Shown piece by piece: positions 1 to 24,899 of a stretch of DNA of 42,273 nucleotides (positions are counted from its first letter, which is position 1; every line of letters begins with the position of its first letter). Below the pieces are notes generated by a model that had not been told where the DNA came from, made no database searches, and saw nothing but the letters and a program-made list of their open reading frames with translations. The stretch is from a virus (lineage: Duplodnaviria; Heunggongvirae; Uroviricota; Caudoviricetes): the IMG/VR virus record IMGVR_UViG_2908959467_000004. One strand, given 5' to 3'. A program made the position numbers and the translations under genes.

Positions 1-267
1 ATGCGCAGAAAAGAGTCAAACGTTAGCAGTTTGCCGGAACTCACCAATTTTGAGGTAAGCTATTCTCTGGTTACCAATGAAGTTTACTTGTCTGCATCCT
101 TCACTGATAACATGGTCTGTATACCAAACTGGCCCTTACAAGAATTTCCGGATCAACTAATATGCATTTCTCGAGCAAAAGCTGTTGCCCTAATCGAAGA
201 GCTCCAGAAGACCATCAACTATATGGATGCAGGAATAGATCGAAGTTCAGGTAGCCTTCTCCAGTAG
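1..267 (+). CDS. hypothetical protein (low-GC cargo gene beyond the tail module)
   Basis: 88-aa ORF starting at window position 1; AT-rich; no recognisable motif. Confidence 0.3.
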   Translation: MRRKESNVSSLPELTNFEVSYSLVTNEVYLSASFTDNMVCIPNWPLQEFPDQLICISRAKAVALIEELQKTINYMDAGIDRSSGSLLQ

Positions 268-327
268 CTGACGAGTTTTATAATAATTTGATATATATAT
301 ATCGTTCAATATTAGCGAGTACTTATA

Positions 328-975
328 ATGAGTGAATTTAGTAATTTTTTAAATAGCATTCCTGGATGGTTATCCTCCTCCCTCACAGCTCTAGTTGGTA
401 CTCTTATTGGCGGATGGTTTACCCTAAAAGGAGTTACCCAACAAGCTAAGCTGTCTAAAGTAGAGACAGAAAGAGAATCCCTTGAATTGCAACTTTCAGT
501 ATTAAAAGGTGTTAAGGGAGAAATTTTCACCCTAATCAATTTATATAATAAAAGGATGAAAACACACATTGATAGTATCAAACCCGGACAGATGTTAATT
601 CTCACTTTCCCTGTAGGGGATGATAATTTCACATTCTATGAGCAAAATGCGAATGTCATTGCAAAACTAAATGATTCTGCCAGAGACTCAATAATTAATA
701 TCTACACATATTCACGGTCATTAATACAATCATTTAAAGGAAACAACAAACTCATTGAGGATTATGAAAAAATCCTTATTGGTATGGCTGACAATAACAA
801 AGATAAAACCATGTATAAGAGATTACATGATGAAAAAATAGATGTAATGGTAGATTATGCTCAAGGGATAAAAAATATTGATGAAGAACTAAGAGATGCA
901 GTCAATAAGGGATTCAACATTATCGACCAAGAAGTAAAGTCGCTACAAATGAAATTAAACAAATTAGCTTCATAG
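328..975 (+). CDS. hypothetical membrane-anchored protein (one N-terminal hydrophobic helix, then a Lys/Asp/Glu-rich soluble domain)
   Basis: 215-aa ORF; N-terminal segment WLSSSLTALVGTLIGGWF looks transmembrane; AT-rich codon usage unlike the flanking tail genes. Confidence 0.45.
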   Translation: MSEFSNFLNSIPGWLSSSLTALVGTLIGGWFTLKGVTQQAKLSKVETERESLELQLSVLKGVKGEIFTLINLYNKRMKTHIDSIKPGQMLILTFPVGDDNFTFYEQNANVIAKLNDSARDSIINIYTYSRSLIQSFKGNNKLIEDYEKILIGMADNNKDKTMYKRLHDEKIDVMVDYAQGIKNIDEELRDAVNKGFNIIDQEVKSLQMKLNKLAS

Positions 976-1059
976 AAATGCTCCACTCCCTGTTCAAGAT
1001 TTTTACAAGCTTATCAGCCAGCCGTGGCACGTTCTTGCATACGACGTGCCACGGTTTCA

Positions 1060-1188
1060 TTCATCTCCGACCGGAAACTTCTTATACAAAGTCGATACGC
1101 CAACATCATAGATGATCGCCATTTTCTGGCGAGAAACTCCTGATGCAATTTGTCGTCCAGCCTGCGCCCATTGCTCCGGCGTGAGAGT
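1060..1188 (-). pseudogene. remnant of a Gin/Pin/Hin-family DNA invertase (C-terminal HTH only)
   Basis: Minus-strand translation LTPEQWAQAGRQIASGVSRQKMAIIYDVGVSTLYKKFPVGDE-stop resembles the C-terminal DNA-binding domain of Gin/Hin invertases as I recall them; no start codon and no catalytic N-terminal domain. Confidence 0.6.
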
Positions 1189-1269
1189 AAGACAGTAAAC
1201 TGTAGAAAAATCTCATTAAACTTAATATAATAATAAGTTACAGAATTATCTTTACTGAATAATAGACAT

Positions 1270-1815
1270 ATGAATATTAGTGAACTTAAAAACTGTATAC
1301 ACTATGAAGTAATAGGTTATAAACGCCCTTTCTCCTGGCGAAAAGCAATTGTTCGCGCAATAAAACACAGAAGATTACGTTATTTATTTTGGTGGCGCGT
1401 AGCAAAATATCTTTTTGATAAAGGAGGATACCGGCGAAAGATTGCAGGAAAAATAGAACGCTTCATTCTTGATAAATACAATGTAACCGTTCCCTTAACT
1501 GTAAATATTGGTAAAGGGTTCGACATATCTTATCTTAATGGCGTTGTTATCGGTCACAAAGTTACAATAGGTGAAAATTGTTCAATTAAGCCTGGGGTAA
1601 CTATTGGACTTCGCGGTGAATTTAATGATATGGATATTGTCATAGGAAATAATGTAACCATTGGCTGTAACGCCACCATCCTTGGTGGCAAAGTGCATAT
1701 AGGGAATAATGTAAAAATAGGAGCTCATGCATTGGTACTGCATGACATTCCTGATGACTCCACATTCATTACTAAATTTCACTCTGAAATTATTTATAAC
1801 TCATCTCACACATAA
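1270..1815 (+). CDS. hexapeptide-repeat (left-handed beta-helix) O-acetyltransferase, CysE/WcaB-like
   Basis: 181 aa; imperfect hexapeptide repeats IGKGFDISYLNGVVIGHKVTIGENCSIKPGVTIG...IGNNVTIGCNATILGGKVHIGNNVKIGAHALV; low GC; convergent with the tail fiber assembly gene. Confidence 0.7.
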   Translation: MNISELKNCIHYEVIGYKRPFSWRKAIVRAIKHRRLRYLFWWRVAKYLFDKGGYRRKIAGKIERFILDKYNVTVPLTVNIGKGFDISYLNGVVIGHKVTIGENCSIKPGVTIGLRGEFNDMDIVIGNNVTIGCNATILGGKVHIGNNVKIGAHALVLHDIPDDSTFITKFHSEIIYNSSHT

Positions 1816-1825
1816 TTCCGTTTAA

Positions 1826-2404
1826 TCACAGCTCTGGCCATACGATATCCGGGGCTGTATTTATATCAATCCGACTCACTAATACCCGGTATTTTTTCCA
1901 GGAAGATAGCATCGAGATTTCCTCATCAGTTGCCATTTCAAAATTAACAGCATCCTGCAGAATTGTTATGTTATCAGTCGCTTCCTGGATTAATCTTGCC
2001 TTTTTCTCTTCCGCCTCCCGGATCCGGAACAGTTTTTCTGCTTCTGCATCTTTCACCCAAGCTGTGCCGTTCCACTTCTGAAACTCCCCATCCGGCGACA
2101 ACCAGGTGACATTTTCCGGTAATGGGCCAAGTTCAGAAATAAATAACGCGTCCCCTGATGCCACGTCATAAACTGTTTTACCCCGATGGTCTTCAACAAG
2201 ATGCCACGATGCCTCATCACTGTTGAAAACAGCCACGAAGCCAGCCGGAATATCTGGCGGTGCAATATCGGTACTGTTTGCTGGCAGACCTGTATGAGGC
2301 GGAATGTATGCGTCACCTTCACCAACAAATTCATTAGTTCCGGCCAGCAGATTATAAATTGTTATGGTCCGTGGTTGTTCACTCATTCTGAAATCCATGT
2401 TCAC
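1826..2404 (-). CDS. tail fiber assembly protein (Tfa/Mu U-like chaperone)
   Basis: 192 aa; sits at the end of the tail fiber region where a Tfa is expected; composition typical of Tfa proteins. Confidence 0.7.
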
Positions 2405-2406
2405 CT

Positions 2407-3309
2407 CTACTTAATATCAGAGACAGAATATTGTTTATTGAGCGTATGGGTGTGAGCACCAATAACGATGCTACTTCCGTGGCTATGTGCGCCAGAGATG
2501 ACATTACCTACGGGATTTTCTGGATTAATCCGGTGTATATGCGAACCAGGGCGAAACCGGTTATTAGCCTGATGTTGTATCAGTACATCATCAGCCTGAT
2601 GTTCAGGGTTAATACAGACCTGCCCGGAACGTGAGCAATACGTCCGATAATCGCCGCATCCAATATATTTAGTATCCGCATAACGGCAAACAGAATTACC
2701 CGGACAGTATGCATATGTGCCAAATACTGCCGACTGGCGGGATTGTGCGTATTCCCAGTTAATTGATTCTGTTTTTTTATTAAAGTTATCCCATGCCTGC
2801 TTCATCTGCCGGGCAACACTTTCAAACGGCACCTGACCACATCCGGCTCCCATTGCAGGGAATACCACCGTTTTTATTTTCCTGTCTGTCGTTGCGTGTT
2901 TATTGTGCTGAAAGATGGCAAGCAGAGCGGCCCAGGTTGCATTATATACAGCGTCTGTTCCGGCAATTGTCAGCGGAACACGCATTGTTGGCGCATGTAC
3001 CAGCCAGGGGTGATGATTATGCCCCGTTTCAATTACAAATGCAGAACCTACAGGCTGTTCGCCTAGATATTCACGAAGAATATGATTCTGAACGCGGGAC
3101 TGTAACTGAGTACCGAAGAATGCGGTAATGGCGGCATCAACGCCGCCATCCATCAGGCCGAAACTATTTGCCGCACTTACCATGCAGTCAAATTCTCTGA
3201 TTGTTTCAAATGGCTTTCCGACAATATTCACATTATCTGCGGTTGCAAATACCCGCTTAAATGCTTCAGCCATTTCTGTTACTGGTGCAGAAAGAATGAG
3301 CGTAATCAT
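2407..3309 (-). CDS. macro-domain protein with tail-fiber-like His-x-His C-terminal region
   Basis: 300 aa; N-terminal ~190 aa carry macro-domain signatures ([18 protein letters not shown]; [17 protein letters not shown]; [21 protein letters not shown]); C-terminus is Cys-rich and ends [19 protein letters not shown]; start overlaps the tail fiber stop (ATGA). Confidence 0.7.
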
Positions 3310-6279: not shown

Positions 6280-6632
6280 TACGCCTCCGATGTAACAGTC
6301 GTTATTCCATAGAGAGTGTCGATTTCAGCGGAAAACATGACACGTCGGGTCGTGGTATCCACCGTCGTATTGAAAGAGAGGATTGATTTAACGCCCCGCG
6401 TTTCCAGAATGCGTTTTCTGATCGCCAGGTTGTAAGTTTCCGGTTTTTGCCTGCCCAGCACGGACTGGATCCACGGAGTCCCCTCGGTGGTGTCGAGAAA
6501 CCATTGCCCATACCACAATTCGAATCGCGTTTTTACCGCCTGCGCCACGGCCTCCGGTGAGTTAATCAGCCAGGTGTCATCACCGCTGCCAAAGGTGTAA
6601 TCGCCATCGGCGTCTTCACGTCTGTATCGCAT
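6279..6632 (-). CDS. baseplate wedge protein (gpW/gp25-like)
   Basis: 117 aa; small baseplate protein immediately upstream of the J-like gene. Confidence 0.55.
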   Translation of the reverse strand: MRYRREDADGDYTFGSGDDTWLINSPEAVAQAVKTRFELWYGQWFLDTTEGTPWIQSVLGRQKPETYNLAIRKRILETRGVKSILSFNTTVDTTTRRVMFSAEIDTLYGITTVTSEA

Positions 6633-7384
6633 CAGTTTACCCCGTCGGTACTGCTTCCACCGCGCTGAACACCACCATGAGTGTGCGTATCATCGATTGG
6701 CTTGCCGTTAGCCTTCACGCTCCCCAAGAACTCAACAGCACCAGTGATTTTTGAAGCCACACCAGAAACCACAGACCCCACCATGCCCCCCATCCAGGTT
6801 AACAGGCCATGAATGGTTACTTTCTCAGAAAAATCAGCCAGAGGGGCAACCACATCAAGACCACCCGGAGCGACAATTTTAATTTTCCTGGTATCAGGAT
6901 TAAGCTCAAAATAGGTGCTGCCGTCGTCACTACGCAACTGTGTGGCACTGGTATTAATACCGCTAATCTTCCTCGCCTGCGACTGGGGACCGACAATACA
7001 AAACGCATCCGATAAATCATGCATTCTGTCATCGACCGGCTCCTGTATCCCACCGCTCTGCCACCAGAAATCAATACAACGATCGGCAAAAACGACAAGA
7101 CACTCATCCCCGGCTTTAACCGGAAAAGTCAACGTACAGCCTCCGCCGCGCGGAAATACCACTGGCACATCCACCAGCAACGGGTAATTTTTGGTAATGC
7201 GGTTACCGTCGTTATCCTTTTCAACCGAACGGATAGCTGGCTGCACAACCGCCGTCACCGCGTCGGGATCGAATGACTGAACAATGCCAGGCAAGGCGAC
7301 ACGGATCTGGTTCTTTGTTGTTTCCCGTTCAGATTTGAATGTTTCGGCAAGGTCGCCGCTGCGGGTCTGGTCAGATACTGCCAT
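6632..7384 (-). CDS. baseplate spike/assembly protein (gpV or Mu gp45-like)
   Basis: 250 aa; conserved order spike-W-J in the baseplate module. Confidence 0.5.
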   Translation of the reverse strand: MAVSDQTRSGDLAETFKSERETTKNQIRVALPGIVQSFDPDAVTAVVQPAIRSVEKDNDGNRITKNYPLLVDVPVVFPRGGGCTLTFPVKAGDECLVVFADRCIDFWWQSGGIQEPVDDRMHDLSDAFCIVGPQSQARKISGINTSATQLRSDDGSTYFELNPDTRKIKIVAPGGLDVVAPLADFSEKVTIHGLLTWMGGMVGSVVSGVASKITGAVEFLGSVKANGKPIDDTHTHGGVQRGGSSTDGVN

Positions 7385-7403
7385 TTAGTAGGCTCCAGAA
7401 AGC

Positions 7404-7425
7404 AAAAAACCCGCCGGGTGGCGGG
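7404..7425 (-). terminator. putative Rho-independent terminator
   Basis: Minus strand reads CCCGCC-ACCC-GGCGGG followed by TTTTTT, just downstream of the 79-aa gene. Confidence 0.5.
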
Positions 7426-7443
7426 TTCATTATTGAAGTTTCA

Positions 7444-7683
7444 TTACTGCTTGTTTGCTTCTAACGCTTCAGCTATTCGGCGAAGATACTCATTGTTTTT
7501 AAATGAAACCATGATGCACTCAAAGAATATTCGGCAAAATACAGCACATAACAAAAGCACTAAAGCGCCAGCAGCCTTCCCATTAACAAACGTTATAATG
7601 GCGGCAACAACCAGAAGTAACATTGTGATGCCATACAGAACGTTGATGATTTTTGGAGTTATTAATTTATCAAATCCGAACAT
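7444..7683 (-). CDS. small inner-membrane protein (two predicted TM helices), moron-like
   Basis: 79 aa; hydrophobic stretches ITMLLLVVAAIITFV and ALVLLLCAVFCRIFF; inserted between baseplate genes and followed by a terminator. Confidence 0.5.
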   Translation of the reverse strand: MFGFDKLITPKIINVLYGITMLLLVVAAIITFVNGKAAGALVLLLCAVFCRIFFECIMVSFKNNEYLRRIAEALEANKQ

Positions 7684-7736
7684 GCGACAAATTCCTTATC
7701 GTGAAAGTAGAAGTATCACATTATAATTACGAGTGA

Positions 7737-8078
7737 TTAATCAACAATCTTTTTGCATGGAAAGGAACCGATGATTTTCGGCGCATCCATGCTGTTCTGC
7801 AGCAGTTGGACATTCAGGAATCGCGTTTCGGTACCAGGGCGACGAATGTATTCAAAGCCGTAGTTGTTACCGTCTTTGGCAGGCATAAGCCCCATGTCTA
7901 CTTTCAAACCATTGGTACCCAGTTCGGTGATTTTTTGAGAGGTAACTCTTTCACCGTTGATTGTCGATAACTCGCCCTGGTTTGCAACCATAGTGTAGCC
8001 ACCGCATTTAACCGTGAAGCCATCCGCCCACGCGCTGCACGCAGAAAAGACAGCTAACAGAAAAATAATACCCCTCAT
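7737..8078 (-). CDS. secreted/periplasmic small protein with signal peptide, moron-like
   Basis: 113 aa; N-terminal MRGIIFLLAVFSACSAWA resembles a cleavable signal peptide; two Cys residues; SD AAGGGG upstream; start 3 nt after the upstream tail gene stop. Confidence 0.5.
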   Translation of the reverse strand: MRGIIFLLAVFSACSAWADGFTVKCGGYTMVANQGELSTINGERVTSQKITELGTNGLKVDMGLMPAKDGNNYGFEYIRRPGTETRFLNVQLLQNSMDAPKIIGSFPCKKIVD

Positions 8079-8081
8079 TGC

Positions 8082-9143
8082 TCATCCCCTTTGCAAAGCC
8101 GATTGCGTATACAGATCCGCCGCGCCACGCGCTTCGCACATCATATCCATGTACCACGCCTGGCCCCTTGTATCGCCACTGTACATAATCCCGCGCACAA
8201 TATAAACGCCATCCGTTGCGATGCTGGCAGGCTGCGATGTGGTGCCGCTGAGCGTGATATTTCCGTCCGTGTTCTGGTCGGTGATCTGCCCGCCGGCCAT
8301 CGCGATATCGTTGTTCGACAGCGCGGTGCGGAATACTGAAGCCTGATCCAGCTGAATGAGCCCGTTAACCCGGATGTTCGGGTTAATCAGCGCGCGGACG
8401 TTTACGCCGTTGCCGATAGTCTGCTGTGGCATACCGATAAGCCCCGTGGCACTGTTGAGCACAATCGCGTCGTGAACATATTCGTTATTCGCCACCATCT
8501 GGCGCTGACCATCCACGAACTGCCATGTTGCGCCACATTGTCCGGCCACGTTATCCATAAGATGACGTGTCATGCCGAATAGCACCCGGCCCCGGGGGAA
8601 AACGGTAGCAGGCATTTCAGGCGTCAGACCTTCAGTCGCGCCTTTGGCCTCGAAGTCTTTCATCAGCGCGCGATTCACGTCTGCGACCGTATAACCGGCC
8701 GCCAGCGTCTGCGAAGTTATGCTGGTGGCAAAAGCCAGATCCGTATCGGCTGCCTGAATCAGAACGTAAGAATCAATGGGGCTGTCTTTTCCTGTTACCG
8801 AGTAACGAATTTCGCCGCTGAAAATCATCCCATAGTTGCGGCCATCACTCTGGCCCACATCCGCCGCGTCGACTTCCCGCACGGTCCCGACGTCGCTGGC
8901 CGATACCTCCGGCGCGATACCGTCGTAACCCGCAATCAGACGCACTTTCGAAAACTCCTGCCCGGTAATTCGGTTCACAGTATCTGCCGAAAGGTTATAA
9001 ATTTTGATAGTCCCTACCCGGGACGCGCTGCTGATGTTGAACCAGTCGATCGTAAAGGTGACTTTGAAATCACTTAGCTCAATTCCCTGACCGTTCCCGT
9101 CCACAAGCTGCAGCTCGAAATGTCTCATCCAGTTCTGTGACAT
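8082..9143 (-). CDS. tail/baseplate hub protein (Mu gpP or late-control-D-like)
   Basis: 353 aa; downstream of the tape measure and two small tail genes, as in Mu-like tail clusters. Confidence 0.55.
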   Translation of the reverse strand: MSQNWMRHFELQLVDGNGQGIELSDFKVTFTIDWFNISSASRVGTIKIYNLSADTVNRITGQEFSKVRLIAGYDGIAPEVSASDVGTVREVDAADVGQSDGRNYGMIFSGEIRYSVTGKDSPIDSYVLIQAADTDLAFATSITSQTLAAGYTVADVNRALMKDFEAKGATEGLTPEMPATVFPRGRVLFGMTRHLMDNVAGQCGATWQFVDGQRQMVANNEYVHDAIVLNSATGLIGMPQQTIGNGVNVRALINPNIRVNGLIQLDQASVFRTALSNNDIAMAGGQITDQNTDGNITLSGTTSQPASIATDGVYIVRGIMYSGDTRGQAWYMDMMCEARGAADLYTQSALQRG

Positions 9144-9145
9144 GC

Positions 9146-9448
9146 TTACTCCGTTGATACCAGTAAATGACTGCGCCCGCCCAGGTCAGTTTTCGTGGGA
9201 TAATCCTGTGTGTTGTCATCGCAGACCACCAACAGCTTAAAACCAAGTCCCATACAGGCGTACTGCGCCAGCAGATCAGCGCCAGTGACGAGAGGAATAC
9301 CGGAGATTACCGGCTCCCCTCTGTCATTCAGCAGGTCCATAATCCAGTAAAGATCGCGCCATATGATGCTAATCCGCCAGGTGACACCACCCAGGACGAT
9401 GCTGAACTGCTGGTTGTCCGCTGTCAGCGGAATTTCCTGAATTGTCAT
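9146..9448 (-). CDS. tail-associated protein
   Basis: 100 aa; stop/start coupled within the tail operon. Confidence 0.4.
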   Translation of the reverse strand: MTIQEIPLTADNQQFSIVLGGVTWRISIIWRDLYWIMDLLNDRGEPVISGIPLVTGADLLAQYACMGLGFKLLVVCDDNTQDYPTKTDLGGRSHLLVSTE

Positions 9449-10035
9449 TAGCCGCCCCCCAGTAATGACGCCACGTTACCCGTGATGCTTTTCAGCAGTG
9501 AATTATCTGGAGGCTTTATGGTTTTGTTGCCGCTATTCTGTACCGCCGACGTGCTGGCCCCTTCCTTCATGTTGGTTTTATCCGCGACGGTAATCTGCTG
9601 TGTCCGGGAGATAAGGACCTCCCTCAGGGTGAGGACGGCGGACAGGACGTTTTCGGTTGTCTTGTCCGTCGTCACTTCCAGCGCCCGGATCAACATGTTG
9701 CTGTACAGTCGTTTACCGGTTACCACATCGAAGGGGATACGGCTTTCCTGCAGATCCAGTAGCTCCTGATACGTCTGCTGAGGACTCAGGCCGAGCAGGC
9801 TGGTAGCCGTCAGATTACTGGCAAAATCCAGCAATGCGCCGCCACCGGCGAAACCAACCTCCATCACCACTTCTGACGGTTTTTTATAGGCATGATCAGC
9901 GACAGCGGCCCCGACTTCTACCGGATGCTCGGTTATTTCAAGCATATCTGTATGCTTCTCTGAAATAACAACACTGGGAACAATCATTCCTATTTTTCTG
10001 CTCTGCTGATGAAAAAGTGTAGAGAGAATATCCAC
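9448..10035 (-). CDS. tail-associated protein immediately downstream of the tape measure
   Basis: 195 aa; start overlaps the tape measure stop. Confidence 0.4.
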   Translation of the reverse strand: MDILSTLFHQQSRKIGMIVPSVVISEKHTDMLEITEHPVEVGAAVADHAYKKPSEVVMEVGFAGGGALLDFASNLTATSLLGLSPQQTYQELLDLQESRIPFDVVTGKRLYSNMLIRALEVTTDKTTENVLSAVLTLREVLISRTQQITVADKTNMKEGASTSAVQNSGNKTIKPPDNSLLKSITGNVASLLGGG

Positions 10036-12023
10036 TAACTCACCCTCACCTGATTACTTCGCATGACCTGAGCATTTGCAGACTGTTGCCGACGTGCAAC
10101 TTCATTACCGACAACGTGCGGATCTCCGCCACCGTAAATGTGGTAGGTATTTTGCTGGTTAACCTCTGTCACTTTGCCACTAATTCCCGCCACGGCAGCC
10201 TTATTAATCAGCTCTTGAGAATAGATATTTCTTCCATTTTCATGCTGGATAATGCTGCTCATCAATGCTGACATGGTTTGCGGATCGCTCATATTCAGGG
10301 CAGCCCGGGGATCCACTCCCAGTCGTTGCGATACAGCCCTGATATACGCAGTTGTGTTGTTATTATCAGACGCAGGCGCCCAGGTAGAGATAATTTTCTC
10401 CACGCTGTTTATTCCACGTCCGGCGTACAACATTAACTGACGAGCAAGAGCCCGTAATCCATCAAAGGCAGTTTCGAATCTGGCAAATCGCCCGCCCGGG
10501 CGTTCAAGAGAAGCCCCCGCCTGACCAGCAAAATTAAGGTTTCCCGGATTGTTATTCCGTTCTCCTCGTTTCGTAGCCTGTGCATGTTGTTCCGGCTCAT
10601 CATCACCAAACCAGCCGCGTACCGTCCGGCCCACACTGCGGGGATCGAATCCCCAGTGCTCTTTAATCCAGTCGGCAGTACTGTTAGCGCTGTCTGTAAC
10701 CATCGGCATCGCTGACGGATTTTCGCTGCCCTGATTAAGTATCTGTTTGCCGATGCTGACGGCATCAGCCCAGCGGCCATCTTTGATAGCGTTGAGCAGG
10801 TCGGCGATCATGTTCAGCATTTTGCTGAATTCGCCCATCTGGTCGATGAAGTTGCTGAAATCCCACTTCAGGGACCATGATTTGGGGTCAATATTGAGTA
10901 GTTTCGCCAGCGCTTTCGCCAGGTCGTTAACGGTCGTTTTAAGGTCACGAACCATCTTCAGCGCGGCATCGACCTCCGGTTTCCACTTGCCCCAGTCAAT
11001 CAGGCTGTCGCCGCCTTCCTTCCAGGTCTGATAGTCCTCCCACAGGAGGGCAATACCCGCCGCCAGCGCGGTAATGAGGCCAATCGGCGACATCCAGAAC
11101 GTACTGTTCAGAATGCGCAGCGCAATCGTCAGTGCGCCAAACAGCGAGATCAACTCCCGCGTTTGCTTATCCAGCGATTGCCACCAGGTGATGAGGCTTG
11201 ATGTTCCTTCAATCAGTCTGAAGAACAGCCGCCCGATAATATCCCCGAGCGCCAGAATGCCTTTTATGGCTTTCGTCAGGGTCTGCTCGATACGAGGGAA
11301 GTTGTCCAGGATATGGCGGCGCAGGGTGTCCAGCGAACCCGCAAGCCCACCCGCAAGATTAGAGCCGATTTTGTCACGGGCCATGCCTGCCATCGCGCCA
11401 AACTCACGCAGGGAGGTCATAAATTTGTTGGAGCTTCTGGCCGCCTCGTCAGCATTGAAGCCGATAGCTTTCGCCATTGCGCTGTACTGCCCGGAGAAGC
11501 CACCCACACCCCGGCGCATCGCCATAAGGGTATTTTCGTCAATGCCCAGCATCTGCGCATACTGGTTAGCCCGGTAATACGGCATGCCGCTGAGCTTCTG
11601 GCCTACACTTGTAAAAATAGCGGCCATGTCACGCATGTTACCGCTGGCATCCCGTGTCTGTACCCCCAGGCGATTCAGAAATCCCTCTGCCCCGGGATTG
11701 TTACGAATAAACCGGGAGAGGCTTTCCAGAGAAGATCGCGCAGCGTCCACGCTGCCGCCAACCTGTGAAACCGCATAGCCAATAGACTGAATTCCCTGGA
11801 CTGTCGCGCCAGTGCGCTGTGACGCCCAGTAAAGATTATCCAGGCCGGAGGCAATCTTAGCCGTAAAGGCCACCACGGACAGTGCAGCTCCTTCAACGGC
11901 CAACCCCATTTTGATGACATTTGCAGTTGTCCCGGCGAGGACAGAACCGAATTTTTTTGCTCCAGCATCATCCACACTGAAGCCAAGCGAGACGAGGAAA
12001 TCTTTAATAGTTTCAGCGTTCAT
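10035..12023 (-). CDS. tail tape measure protein
   Basis: ~660 aa; long Ala/Gly-rich helical protein between tail chaperone and baseplate genes; ATG at 12023 has a strong SD (GGAGAGAGG); an in-frame ATG at 12044 is an alternative start. Confidence 0.8.
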   Translation of the reverse strand: MNAETIKDFLVSLGFSVDDAGAKKFGSVLAGTTANVIKMGLAVEGAALSVVAFTAKIASGLDNLYWASQRTGATVQGIQSIGYAVSQVGGSVDAARSSLESLSRFIRNNPGAEGFLNRLGVQTRDASGNMRDMAAIFTSVGQKLSGMPYYRANQYAQMLGIDENTLMAMRRGVGGFSGQYSAMAKAIGFNADEAARSSNKFMTSLREFGAMAGMARDKIGSNLAGGLAGSLDTLRRHILDNFPRIEQTLTKAIKGILALGDIIGRLFFRLIEGTSSLITWWQSLDKQTRELISLFGALTIALRILNSTFWMSPIGLITALAAGIALLWEDYQTWKEGGDSLIDWGKWKPEVDAALKMVRDLKTTVNDLAKALAKLLNIDPKSWSLKWDFSNFIDQMGEFSKMLNMIADLLNAIKDGRWADAVSIGKQILNQGSENPSAMPMVTDSANSTADWIKEHWGFDPRSVGRTVRGWFGDDEPEQHAQATKRGERNNNPGNLNFAGQAGASLERPGGRFARFETAFDGLRALARQLMLYAGRGINSVEKIISTWAPASDNNNTTAYIRAVSQRLGVDPRAALNMSDPQTMSALMSSIIQHENGRNIYSQELINKAAVAGISGKVTEVNQQNTYHIYGGGDPHVVGNEVARRQQSANAQVMRSNQVRVS

Positions 12024-12200
12024 TATCCTCTCTCCATTTCTCAATGCGCCGCTGGTTATCCGCTTTTACCGCCAGATGGTCATTCAAGAGAGCAATATCG
12101 TACAAATCGACAGAGCCATCTTTAAGTGCTGTATAAGGAATTAACCCGGCGTCAACCGGATTGAGAAGGTAGGACAGCCCGTCCGGCAGGCTGTTAAACG

Positions 12201-16129: not shown

Positions 16130-16463
16130 CTTTAGCCCCATTACCGCCAGTCCGGGCGGCAGTAATCTGCGCCTGCAGGCTATCGTTCTGCTCCTGCAGT
16201 TTGAGCAATGCATCTTTCAGATCGGCAATCAGCTTATCTTTGTCGGCAATCTGCGCTTGCAGGCCGTCGATAATGGGTTGCAGATCATCGGTGTCGCTAA
16301 TCACGCTTTCGGAAATTTCAGAGTGCGCCTGGGTGAACCAGTGCGACGCGACCTCTTCCGGTACGTTATGTCGTCCCCGGCCAAACTCCTGTTTTGACTG
16401 ATCGCCGAGCGTCAGCGTAAACGGGGTGTGAACATGGATGGTAACCAGTTTTTCTTTCGCCAT
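16095..16463 (-). CDS. small coiled-coil head-associated protein
   Basis: 122 aa from ATG at 16463 with SD AAGGAAA; C-terminal heptad-like region [33 protein letters not shown]. Confidence 0.45.
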
Positions 16464-16503
16464 TTCAGTTTCCTTCAGGCCCCTTTCGGGGCCATTCTGG
16501 TTA

Positions 16504-17445
16504 TCAGATACCGTCCACATAGGACAGAGTTTCTTTATACACTGGCTCGACTGCACCCAGCTTGCCGTAGTAAGTGACGATCTGATACAGACCGCGATAC
16601 TGCACCGGCACGCTCTGAAGCGGAACCAGCGGGTAACGGACGTATTTTTTATCGTTGGTGTACGCAATCATGCGATCCTTATTCCCCACACCACGGCCTT
16701 TCAGCCATTTAACCGCGCGGATATTCAGCGGAACACCGTTCTGGTGATAGCTGATGGTGTTGGTCTGAAGGTACGTCAACAGGGACTGGTTACCCGCAGA
16801 TGAAACGATGATGCTGGACAACAGAGCAAACTGCTCAGGCGGGATCAGCAAATCACGCGGAACCACAGAGTAACCAGAAGCGGCCCACGCATCAGACAGC
16901 ACCTGGTTAATACTTGCGCGGATTTCGTCCGGTGTTGAGGTTGCCCACGTTTTGGCAGCGTTGTTGACAGGCACGCCGTCCAGGGTAACAAGGCCTTTCA
17001 GGTTTAATGCGGAATCGCCAACATATACCTGTTCATCGTTATCCATCTGCCATTTCAGTTGCATCCCGTCATACTTCTGCGTATCAATCGGGCGGCCGAC
17101 CTGCTGAGCAGCCTGCAATTCTATGACCGTCCAGCCAAGTTCCATCCCCCACAGGTTCAGCGGGTTACCGGATTTGCCGGTATCCACGTTCACGCCAGCA
17201 ATAGCGGTTGAGTCTTTGCCTACCCAGTTTTTGCCATTCGGATTTGCACCAGTACCCGCAGCGGCGAAGCTGGTATTCGTCCAGCTGGAAATGTCATCTG
17301 CGATGGAGACATCTTCACGCAGTTGAATATCGCGGGTCCAGGTGTACCCCACCAGTGGCAGGTTCAGCGTCTGGTCGAGTCGCTCCAGCTCCCCGATGAG
17401 AAAGGCACCAGAGCTGTCAACGGTTGCCTGATCAAAAGTAATCAT
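16504..17445 (-). CDS. major capsid protein (Mu gpT-like)
   Basis: 313 aa; follows the scaffold/protease-like gene; size and position match a major head subunit. Confidence 0.65.
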   Translation of the reverse strand: MITFDQATVDSSGAFLIGELERLDQTLNLPLVGYTWTRDIQLREDVSIADDISSWTNTSFAAAGTGANPNGKNWVGKDSTAIAGVNVDTGKSGNPLNLWGMELGWTVIELQAAQQVGRPIDTQKYDGMQLKWQMDNDEQVYVGDSALNLKGLVTLDGVPVNNAAKTWATSTPDEIRASINQVLSDAWAASGYSVVPRDLLIPPEQFALLSSIIVSSAGNQSLLTYLQTNTISYHQNGVPLNIRAVKWLKGRGVGNKDRMIAYTNDKKYVRYPLVPLQSVPVQYRGLYQIVTYYGKLGAVEPVYKETLSYVDGI

Positions 17446-23551: not shown

Positions 23552-24076
23552 TTACCGGGATTGTTCTATTTGTCGGACACCAGCCAACTGGTTATTCGCC
23601 TTCTCGATGGCTGCCAACAATGGGTTAATCCACAGAACAGCCTGGCAATATGTCAACGTTCTGGTGGTAGTGGCACGATCACCGGCTGGGTCAATGTACC
23701 CGGAATCGGCGTGCACTGAGCTGGCGCGTAAACGGTTCGCGTAGTTGAGCAACCCGACAGCAATATCAGCAGGAACAGGGAAATCACAGTTCTTTTCACG
23801 GAGCAGAACCTCACGGTATTTGATGACTGTCTTCTCGTGACCGATGTCGACCAGAGAATTTAATCGGCTTGCGTTTTCTGCTATCTGGTTAAAACGATTG
23901 AAGTTGAATGCCTGATTAGCTATCACTTTCCCTTGATATTCAGCTTCACCTTCCGCTTTATCAGCCCGCAACTTTTCTGCCTGATACTTGCTATGGTAAT
24001 GGTTTGCAAGCCAGACGAGCGCCCCAAAGGCAGTGAAGAAAAATGCCGCGATGACAATCTTATAAGTCAGCTTCAT
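23552..24076 (-). CDS. Rz-like inner-membrane spanin
   Basis: 174 aa; N-terminal TM ending WLANHY (lambda Rz has WAVNHY) then coiled-coil; start overlaps the endolysin stop. Confidence 0.55.
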   Translation of the reverse strand: MKLTYKIVIAAFFFTAFGALVWLANHYHSKYQAEKLRADKAEGEAEYQGKVIANQAFNFNRFNQIAENASRLNSLVDIGHEKTVIKYREVLLREKNCDFPVPADIAVGLLNYANRLRASSVHADSGYIDPAGDRATTTRTLTYCQAVLWINPLLAAIEKANNQLAGVRQIEQSR

Positions 24077-24536
24077 TTACCACCCCACCAGCATCTTTAA
24101 ACCTGGAAATCAGGTCACCGATTTTATGTTCATACTGACCGTAACCTGCACCAGGTAACGACGCCCAGATATTGCTGCAACGGTCGATTGCCTGACGAAT
24201 ATCGCCGCAGTCAATCATCGGTAAAGCGCCACGCTCTTTAATCTGCTGCAGCGCCACAGAGTCCTGACTTTCTGGCGAAAAATCTTTCAGGCCAAGCTGC
24301 TTGCGGTAGGCATCCCACCAACGGGAAAGAATCTGGTAACGTCCGGCGGCTGTTGATTTGAGTTTAGAGTTTAGCGTGACAAGTTTGCGAGGGTGATCGG
24401 AGTAATCAGTGAACAGTTCGCCACCAACAATAACATCATAACCGTGGTTACGTGTCGGTTGTCGCCCGTTATCCGTTCCTTCTGACCATGCCACCATATC
24501 AAGGAAAGCTTTACGCTGGGGATTTAGTACCTGCAT
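24060..24536 (-). CDS. R: endolysin, lytic transglycosylase (lambda R-like)
   Basis: 158 aa; closely matches lambda R as I recall it (QRKAFLDM.AWSEGTDNGRQ.TRNHGYDVIVGGELFTDYSDHPRKLVTLN...). Confidence 0.9.
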   Translation of the reverse strand: MQVLNPQRKAFLDMVAWSEGTDNGRQPTRNHGYDVIVGGELFTDYSDHPRKLVTLNSKLKSTAAGRYQILSRWWDAYRKQLGLKDFSPESQDSVALQQIKERGALPMIDCGDIRQAIDRCSNIWASLPGAGYGQYEHKIGDLISRFKDAGGVVNEADL

Positions 24537-24539
24537 AAA

Positions 24540-24899
24540 TTACTCCTTCGAGCTACCAAATTTGTTACCGATTACTCGCATTGCAGCCCCACGAATAGCA
24601 TCGACACCGATCAGCCCCACGCCACCACCAATGGCAACAGAAAGCGATTTAGGCCATCCGACATACTCAAGAGCGGATGCAAAGGTCAGCGTCAGTGCGC
24701 CGCAGAGCAAAATCTCAAGCGTTTTTCGTTTCCAGCCGCCGCCACCGCCAAAATAGGCAATGCGCAAACCAGCCATAACAATCGACATAACCACTGCGCC
24801 CAACGGCGTATCTCCACGCCACCAACTTTGTAAGAGTTCCAGTAAGTCAGGCCAGGAATGAGGAGCATTGTGCATTTTCATACTTCCCACCTCCGCCAT
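24540..24899 (-). CDS. holin
   Basis: 119 aa; hydrophobic helices; nested start codons (MAEVGSMKM) typical of holin/antiholin; immediately upstream of the endolysin. Confidence 0.65.
   Translation of the reverse strand: MAEVGSMKMHNAPHSWPDLLELLQSWWRGDTPLGAVVMSIVMAGLRIAYFGGGGGWKRKTLEILLCGALTLTFASALEYVGWPKSLSVAIGGGVGLIGVDAIRGAAMRVIGNKFGSSKE

Follow-up and report, generated by a model that had tools for sequence, protein, structure and literature searches.

It is probable, on our data, that the interval between the baseplate hub and baseplate spike genes of this Escherichia coli prophage consists of three separate elements, namely an accessory gene for an exported protein, a moron inserted in a hotspot and a terminator belonging to the phage backbone, and that these have the roles proposed below. 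A moron in a prophage hotspot is a well-known kind of feature; the site and both protein families encoded there are uncharacterised. The stretch of DNA analysed, here called the window (42,273 nt), is an E. coli prophage, and its relatives are the SEN34-like lambdoid myoviruses (Brunovirus, Wanchaivirus) (PMC5261728), among them Yersinia YP3, Salmonella SEN34, Klebsiella Mulock and GZ7, and E. coli vB_EcoM-689R2. The phage group also occurs in Klebsiella, Salmonella, Yersinia and Pectobacterium. The 721-nt interval itself is found with 100% identity in E. coli strain BCE049. Among 5426 complete E. coli genomes, 244 give a match to it, but no more than 40 of these cover at least 80% of its length.

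The structural genes around the interval are all encoded on the minus strand, and the wedge genes come after the spike in the order of the module. The features are as follows.

10035-12044, minus strand: tape measure
9448-10035, minus strand: Dit-like protein
9146-9448, minus strand: plug of the Pam3-gp18 type
8082-9143, minus strand: baseplate hub of 353 aa, the conserved upstream anchor; PF22759 E217_GP41 (E 3.5e-05)
7737-8078, minus strand: sp113, exported protein of 113 aa (phrog_3443)
8022-8078, minus strand: signal peptide of sp113, residues 1-19, with predicted cleavage between AWA and DG
7684-7747, minus strand: AT-rich spacer with a promoter-like element for the 79-aa gene
7444-7683, minus strand: DUF4282 protein of 79 aa with two transmembrane segments (phrog_12129), the cargo of the slot
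7397-7428, minus strand: predicted intrinsic terminator, with the stem-loop at 7428-7407 and the T-run at 7406-7397
6632-7384, minus strand: baseplate spike of 250 aa, the conserved downstream anchor; gpV-type N-domain PF18352 (E 1.7e-44) and Apex motif

The hub also matches phrog_196 'baseplate hub' (E 4.6e-88) and is 96-99% identical to the hubs of the relatives, and the spike, which is preceded by the ribosome binding site GGAG at 7396-7393, also gives a match to TIGR01644 phage_P2_V. The placement of the two small genes between hub-like and spike-like genes in the initial annotation was thus correct. Rfam and tRNA scans gave no match. The comparisons were based on about 180 related loci, of which 102 were collected through sp113 and 78 were IMG/VR loci collected through the hub.

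The distance from the sp113 stop codon to the ATG of the spike varies from 1 to 1844 nt across the 102 sp113-collected loci, and the inserts in this slot fall into 38 sequence clusters with GC contents of 0.35-0.46, against 0.53-0.57 in the flanks. Four slots are empty (L089, L098, L019 and L026). The cargoes include PD-Lambda-1 (E 1e-82), a YafO-toxin pair, a T5orf172 domain, a DUF2335 membrane protein, a secreted tRNA_anti-like OB-fold protein and a P22-type antirepressor. Many slots hold unassigned two-gene sets coding for proteins of 243-266 aa and 123-142 aa, and the smaller of these has a SRAYY.MYH motif which we read as HEPN-like; the only profile match in favour of this reading is a borderline one to HEPN in PADLOC (E 0.009). 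A 121-aa cargo protein in locus L092 was considered as a paralog of sp113 and rejected, since hhalign aligned the signal peptide and a CG motif only, with a probability of 33%. With its conserved flanks, its many unrelated cargoes and the known defence genes among them, the slot is a hypervariable, low-GC prophage accessory and defence hotspot, which is a kind of site already well known. Counting the DUF4282 gene, this recombination hotspot has no fewer than 38 alternative cargoes, and it lies between the sp113 stop codon and the terminator.

The 79-aa protein of the window has two hydrophobic segments (residues ~12-34 and ~38-60), as expected for the two-TM membrane protein described initially, and its residues 2-71 score above the gathering threshold of Pfam PF14110 DUF4282 (42.2 bits versus 27). 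An identical RefSeq protein is named 'DUF4282 domain-containing protein'. In the Pfam scan (E <= 0.1) only DUF4282 and a sub-threshold YbhQ were obtained, with no match to YebO or HK97 gp15. PADLOC-DB 2.0 contained no family for either this protein or sp113 at E <= 1, the NCBIfam profile search gave nothing for either of them, and a literature search with DUF4282 and the protein accessions found no publication. The GC content of the gene is 37.5%, compared to 52-56% in hub and spike, and that of the spacer in front of it is 34%. On the minus strand, the spacer contains a promoter-like pair consisting of TTGTTG (7747-7742) and, after 16 nt, TATAAT (7725-7720). The TATAAT is perfect and is located 36 nt before the ATG of the gene, with a good ribosome binding site, AAGGAA (7697-7692), in between; the -35 hexamer is weak and matches in only 3/6 positions, which is why the element was missed by the consensus scan. 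Promoter-like -35/-10 pairs also precede the DUF4282 homologs in all three of the other contexts examined (Pectobacterium, Pantoea and a Klebsiella siphophage).

DUF4282 cargo is present in 17 of the 102 sp113-collected loci and in 40 of the 5426 complete E. coli genomes. In Pectobacterium, Erwinia and Hafnia, homologs with 58-75% identity fill this same slot. Elsewhere such homologs directly follow the tape measure gene in a Klebsiella siphophage and the lysis cassette in a Pantoea prophage, and one context is a chromosomal, non-phage site. Morons, in the definition of Juhala and Hendrix as restated in PMC3594210, occupy sites that are differently filled or empty in relatives, and this is what we found for the 79-aa gene. 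By its GC content, the occupancy of the site and its changing contexts, the gene fits the definition of a moron, apparently a mobile one.

The closest characterised analog is gp15 of HK97, a moron in the tail operon whose product in the inner membrane blocks genome entry (PMC3594210). In both cases a small membrane protein with chromosomal homologs is encoded by an insert of foreign GC content in a tail operon, and the gp15 insert has promoter and terminator elements (PMC3594210). The two differ in that HK97 gp15 is a member of the YebO family and its gene lies between those of the tail tube chaperone and the tape measure of a siphophage, whereas the 79-aa protein is a DUF4282 protein with no YebO match, for which we only infer exclusion, and its gene lies between sp113 and the spike. 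On this analogy, the most likely role of the 79-aa protein is exclusion at the inner membrane, after the manner of HK97 gp15. It would be expressed from the repressed prophage, adopt an N-in/C-in hairpin topology in the inner membrane, and block the entry of DNA from superinfecting phages in the way that HK97 gp15 does.

The 79-aa protein may alternatively modulate lysis timing, as a holin or antiholin-like protein, or the physiology of the host membrane, and not act in exclusion. We regard this as unlikely, although it has the best claim among the alternatives considered here. The protein is small with two transmembrane segments, an N-in/C-in orientation that we infer, and a charged C-terminal helix, and this is the layout of class II holins. 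The Pantoea homolog is encoded just downstream of holin, lysozyme and Rz genes, and the existence of chromosomal DUF4282 homologs is also in line with a role of this type. On the other hand, the BCE049 copy of the prophage, which is about 97% identical, already has a lambda-family holin and a GH24 lysozyme, encoded upstream of its structural genes on the same strand, and window ORFs at 23552-24899 match the sizes of the BCE049 lysis genes (holin, lysozyme and a further downstream gene). In most contexts, moreover, the DUF4282 gene is found inside tail modules, and the slot in the relatives carries defence and toxin-antitoxin cargo.

As a site of exchange, the slot can be compared to the antiviral hotspots of P2-like phages and P4 satellites (Rousset et al. 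2022, as cited in PMC11364771), where conserved core genes likewise flank a site of many alternating, unrelated accessory or defence cassettes in otherwise similar genomes. The site here differs in the phage lineage (SEN34-like lambdoid myoviruses with a baseplate of the E217/Pam3 type), in its position between hub and spike, and in being bounded by a gene for an exported protein and a conserved terminator. The consulted papers that cite Rousset et al. 2022 contain no mention of the hub-spike slot. The hub-spike interval of the SEN34-like lambdoid myoviruses can thus be described as a well-bounded hotspot for accessory genes, and its conserved flanks, i.e. the end of sp113 and the 40-nt terminator with ribosome binding site, could be used to mine new defence and exclusion genes systematically.

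The protein encoded next to the slot, sp113, is predicted to be exported. From hydropathy, its N-terminus, MRGIIFLLAVFSACSAWA followed by DG, has a basic start, a hydrophobic core of 10 residues and an A-x-A cleavage motif. In the homologs A18 is invariant and A16 at least 90% conserved, whereas the other residues of the signal peptide vary. A basic n-region, an h-region and an A-x-A motif that is kept while the sequence drifts are the properties of a type I Sec signal, which is accordingly predicted for sp113, and all 70 members of the family in the hub survey have a signal-peptide-like N-terminus. The precursor contains three cysteines, of which C14 is inside the signal peptide and is not conserved, while C25 and C108 are present without exception in the family, even in members with only 24% identity. 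The description of a signal-peptide protein of 113 aa therefore holds, and that of two cysteines is right for the mature protein. Since C14 (in FSAC) is missing in most homologs, the motif is not a lipobox and sp113 is not considered a lipoprotein.

With a more diverse alignment, AlphaFold2 models sp113 confidently as an up-and-down β-barrel of eight strands, the first and last of which bear the invariant cysteine pair; the pLDDT is 84.7 for the whole chain and exceeds 90 in its mature part. From the model we predict that sp113 is soluble and periplasmic, with a disulfide between C25 and C108 clamping the barrel. Neither BFVD nor a sequence-profile search of the PDB gave a match. A deep search with the sp113 profile also matched PKD/SprB and Listeria-Bacteroides repeat proteins, where the alignments consisted of several stretches on repetitive targets. 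The family is confined to Enterobacterales, with no annotation other than 'hypothetical', 'secreted' or 'exported'. No other protein of the module is as divergent (mean pairwise distance 0.23 versus 0.10 for the hub). For dN/dS we obtained 0.12 in the core, 0.43 in the signal peptide and, for the N-terminal third of the mature protein, 0.28. It is in this third that the distinct allele classes differ, which circulate within E. coli along with recombinants.

We propose that the late transcript serves for translation of both the hub and sp113, and that sp113, once exported by Sec, would act in the periplasm or at the outer membrane, where it may exclude or disarm incoming related phages or protect the progeny. 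One specific form of such an activity would be inhibition of the muralytic enzyme carried by the tail, so that superinfecting siblings are kept from penetrating the cell wall. This idea arises from the C-terminus of the tape measure, a lysozyme-like domain with matches to PDB 7q47 'Endolysin' (E 1.5e-13) and 9vvp Gp29 (E 2e-20), which brings to mind Spackle of T4. Spackle, PliC, MliC and PhiA are, as is predicted for sp113, small signal-peptide proteins acting in the periplasm. PliC, MliC and PhiA also share with sp113 the class of eight-stranded β-barrels, a match which is generic and without counterpart in the sequence profiles; T4 Spackle (Sp) is helical. A first, weak model of sp113 (pLDDT 69) ranked PhiA and PliC near the top of the fold matches, but this resemblance was abandoned, as the better model matched barrels only generically, and neither a profile match nor a specific fold match to the MliC/PliC lysozyme inhibitor family was found for sp113. 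In 15 of 62 relatives the muralytic domain is replaced by an SLT domain, and the sp113 alleles there are still 97-98% identical; the main allele classes are each found with both types of enzyme (Enc34-like and SLT). The alleles are thus indifferent to the type of muralytic domain, and a Spackle-like inhibitor of the tail lysozyme is disfavoured, with only a small chance of being correct.

The sequence variation of sp113 does not point to another partner either. Correlations of its pairwise distances with those of other genes decay with map distance, being highest for the hub, then the plug, then the Dit-like protein and the tape measure, and then the spike, and no tracking of sp113 alleles with the spike, the tail fibre or the muralytic domain of the tape measure was found beyond physical linkage. 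Since the covariation follows only this linkage, no partner of sp113 is indicated.

Envelope-level exclusion is nevertheless a reasonable candidate function. T5 Llp is an exported, receptor-blocking exclusion protein which is encoded beside the genes for the tail tip and receptor binding. The Cor protein of phi80, N15 and HK022 is likewise an exported envelope exclusion protein encoded beside tail genes (PMC3594210). Like Llp and Cor, sp113 is a predicted exported protein encoded beside tail genes, and in four relatives its place is taken by a lipoprotein. Unlike them, sp113 is not a lipoprotein by the above reasoning, and its allele stays 97-100% identical in loci with fibres unrelated to those of the window, as seen in the only 8 loci from which a fibre was recovered. 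A promoter-like site upstream of sp113 was looked for by consensus scan and none was found, and the product may therefore appear only late in infection. Such late expression fits roles in progeny protection or in the lysis phase as well as it fits exclusion.

The position of sp113 is highly conserved. The gene starts 3 nt past the stop codon of the hub with the Shine-Dalgarno sequence GGGGA, and is probably translationally coupled to it. It follows directly after the hub in all 102 loci collected through sp113, whatever the cargo and also with none. Since this set is biased towards the gene, a survey anchored on the hub was carried out, in which the first gene after the hub belonged to the sp113 family in 70 of 78 loci (~90%). 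Also in the deposited relatives, i.e. the Yersinia, Salmonella, Klebsiella and E. coli phages, a homolog of sp113 with 58-96% identity lies immediately past the hub, whereas the second gene is a different one in each, coding for 266, 170, 148 or 138 aa. Homologs with 27-32% identity in other Enterobacterales still have the position after the hub, and one Hafnia prophage has no sp113 gene. A moron would be absent at the site in relatives and form an independent transcription unit; the presence of sp113 in most hub-anchored loci and its 3-nt gap to the hub are the opposite of this. By these comparisons sp113 is a lineage-conserved accessory gene of the tail-tip module, not a moron.

In the remaining 8 of the 78 hub-anchored loci, the gene after the hub is unrelated to sp113 and codes for another exported protein, either of a signal-peptide family of 153-180 aa (n = 4) or a lipoprotein of 241 aa (n = 4). 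The first product after the hub thus bears a signal peptide in 78 of 78 loci, and the replacement of sp113 by an unrelated exported protein or lipoprotein in about 10% suggests that the position keeps some envelope-located protein. One may speculate further that the position directly after the hub is a dedicated slot for exported proteins, and that its occupants would represent a novel class of periplasmic factors, linked to the hub, for exclusion or protection; we hold this to be a tentative and rather doubtful extension. If it were true, the products might plug or disarm the tip of the tail tube of incoming kin phages, and the sp113 allele classes would set the specificity through the N-terminal third in which they differ. 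With the cargo slot and the conserved terminator added, the baseplate operon would then contain a built-in envelope-defence island. The arrangement could then be likened to that of T6SS immunity genes, which sit next to vgrG. Independently of this, the putative disulfide β-barrel of phrog_3443 and the small DUF4282 membrane protein bring two uncharacterised envelope families together at an uncharacterised site.

The third element is a predicted intrinsic terminator of conserved structure, with a GC-rich hairpin and a U-tract. The hairpin has a 9-bp stem with 6 GC pairs and a 4-nt loop, and is followed by the T-run. The folding energy is -16.4 kcal/mol (z = -3.56), none of 200 shuffled sequences folded as well, and no other strong terminator was seen on the coding strand of the 20-kb structural operon, where this site ranks far ahead of all other terminator-like ones. 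The clean intrinsic terminator noticed after the two genes is therefore borne out. In the window it ends 22 nt before the ATG of the spike, and across loci this distance is 19-24 nt. Counted as hairpins in each individual sequence, hairpin and T-run are present in 99 of 102 loci with any cargo, including three of the four empty sites (L089, L098 and L019), where no moron transcript exists to be insulated against. Although the loop occurs in 27 variants, the stem is maintained, with compensatory changes seen in L004 (CCCAC/GTGGG) and L030 (GGCCGCT/AGTGGCC). Because it is kept in nearly all loci and at empty sites, we consider the terminator an element of the phage backbone. This has a consequence for annotation, as a terminator found beside a moron need not be part of that moron.

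These observations bear directly on the initial annotation, which had described a two-gene cassette with its own terminator, interpreted as a moron pair and expected to be missing from related prophages. A single inserted unit of this kind is understandable from the window by itself, where the genes are adjacent, both code for envelope proteins, a terminator stands behind them and the GC content of sp113 (47%) is slightly under that of the neighbouring genes. It is nevertheless very improbable. The gene for sp113 is found with every type of cargo and with none, has no promoter of its own that we could detect and is only 3 nt away from the hub; the terminator persists irrespective of cargo; and YP3 shares sp113 at 98% and yet carries a 266-aa cargo instead of the DUF4282 gene. 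The two genes hence have separate histories, and the term moron is appropriate for the 79-aa gene, with its low GC content and its different or absent counterparts in relatives, and not for sp113. The comparison with related prophages gave the same division, the DUF4282 cargo being restricted to a minority of loci as an insert would be, and sp113 and the terminator being kept without it.

It is least credible of all that sp113, the 79-aa protein or both belong to the baseplate as structural parts or take part in its assembly, for while both genes lie between hub and spike and sp113 is conserved and tightly coupled to the hub, sp113 has a conserved cleavable Sec signal and a cysteine pair typical of periplasmic disulfides, is replaced by unrelated exported proteins in 8 of 78 loci and is lacking in the Hafnia prophage, the 79-aa gene is missing from most relatives, and the cryo-EM model of E217, whose hub is of the same Pfam family, assigns gp41 and gp43 and leaves the intervening gp42 unmentioned. 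The earlier view that the two proteins are unlikely to be parts of the virion is in agreement with this. E217 gp42 was also considered as a positional analog of sp113 and rejected, being an unrelated protein of 177 aa with no signal peptide.

Within the three-element arrangement that we favour, the terminator would in the lysogen keep transcripts initiated in the slot out of the spike and the baseplate and wedge genes. In lytic growth, a Q-antiterminated late transcript would read through it, and in the BCE049 copy a Q-family antiterminator is indeed encoded upstream of the late and structural genes on the same strand. The terminator could in addition, together with the conserved 3' end of sp113, provide the homologous flanks for the exchange of cargo. 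The DUF4282 homolog of the Klebsiella siphophage is followed by a near-identical 40-nt terminator and ribosome binding site, which indicates that cargo and terminator can travel together.

The most frequent cargo class of the slot, the variable site between the stop codon of the 113-aa signal-peptide gene and the terminator upstream of the spike gene, is a strongly divergent two-gene pair encoding proteins of 243-266 aa and 123-142 aa, which recurs in seven related loci (L021, L050, L058, L063, L067, L073 and L100). A Pfam scan of two of these pairs (L021 and L050) gave no match, and PADLOC returned a single borderline HEPN match (E 0.009) and no other signal for the two-gene cargo. The smaller protein carries the motif SRAYY.MYH, which we read as HEPN-like. 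The pair is a candidate for an uncharacterised defence or toxin-antitoxin system.

The 113-aa gene itself is replaced in some relatives. In 8 of the 78 IMG/VR loci collected through the hub gene, the first gene after the hub encodes an unrelated exported protein, either a member of a 153-180-aa signal-peptide family (L148, L157, L171 and L182) or a 241-aa lipoprotein with the lipobox LTSC (L161, L167, L170 and L191). Neither had a match in Pfam, and a tblastn search of deposited phages with the lipoprotein as sole query gave none. In Pseudescherichia vulneris (L019, NZ_BBMZ01000043, 1-2850), a tandem pair of 113-aa family genes (29% and 55% identity) lies ahead of the spike gene, and three hub 3'-end fragments are present besides the main hub match; the hotspot thus arranged resembles the scar of a local duplication or recombination. 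In Salmonella phage SEN34 (L003, NC_028699.1, 15497-15835), the 113-aa signal-peptide ORF is intact and full length and shares 70% identity with the protein of the window; RefSeq annotates no more than an N-terminally truncated ORF of 77 aa (SEN34_20) at this place.

Both the 113-aa family and the family of DUF4282, the two-TM membrane protein that is the cargo in the window, also have a chromosomal, non-prophage member (L115, 5001-5357, and L118, 5001-5240, respectively). The former is a 118-aa homolog with 24% identity, flanked by cls/yciY and yciI, and the latter is a 79-aa protein whose gene adjoins a LysR regulator gene and aromatic dioxygenase genes.

A terminator and RBS of about 40 nt, AAACCCGCTCCGGCGGGTTTTTTATGCCCGGAGG, is common to a Klebsiella siphophage, where it follows the tape measure and DUF4282 genes (L008/L010, 6244-6285), and to the hub-spike slot of myophages, where it stands upstream of the spike gene (L022, L107 and L109). 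Its presence in both suggests a junction that is mobile across tail modules of unrelated kinds.

The tape measure protein ends in the following domain:

10127-10556, minus strand: C-terminal lysozyme-like domain of the tape measure (residues ~497-640), identified by PDB matches

The matches are 7q47, 'Endolysin' (E 1.5e-13), and 9vvp, Gp29 (E 2e-20). At the equivalent position, 15 of 62 related loci encode an unrelated SLT lytic-transglycosylase domain (TESGG...GLFQFM); a single domain has been swapped within a tape measure protein that is collinear elsewhere.

Two further regions of the window depart from the otherwise 97% identical prophage of E. coli BCE049. The interval 16133-16529, which separates the major capsid gene from the head gene that follows, is possibly a second site of variation; it measures 396 nt in the window versus 251 nt in BCE049, holds a small ORF that is a longer variant of the BCE049 ORF annotated 'STY1053 family', and includes a hairpin:

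16478-16493: GC hairpin, GGCCCCTTTCGGGGCC

The tail-fibre end of the module (1-3300) is unrelated to the BCE049 copy, with alignment only at 1-282 and from 4243 on. In BCE049 the region contains tail-fibre assembly genes in opposed orientation together with a partial recombinase, a gene content that points to a host-range segment that can be inverted or swapped.
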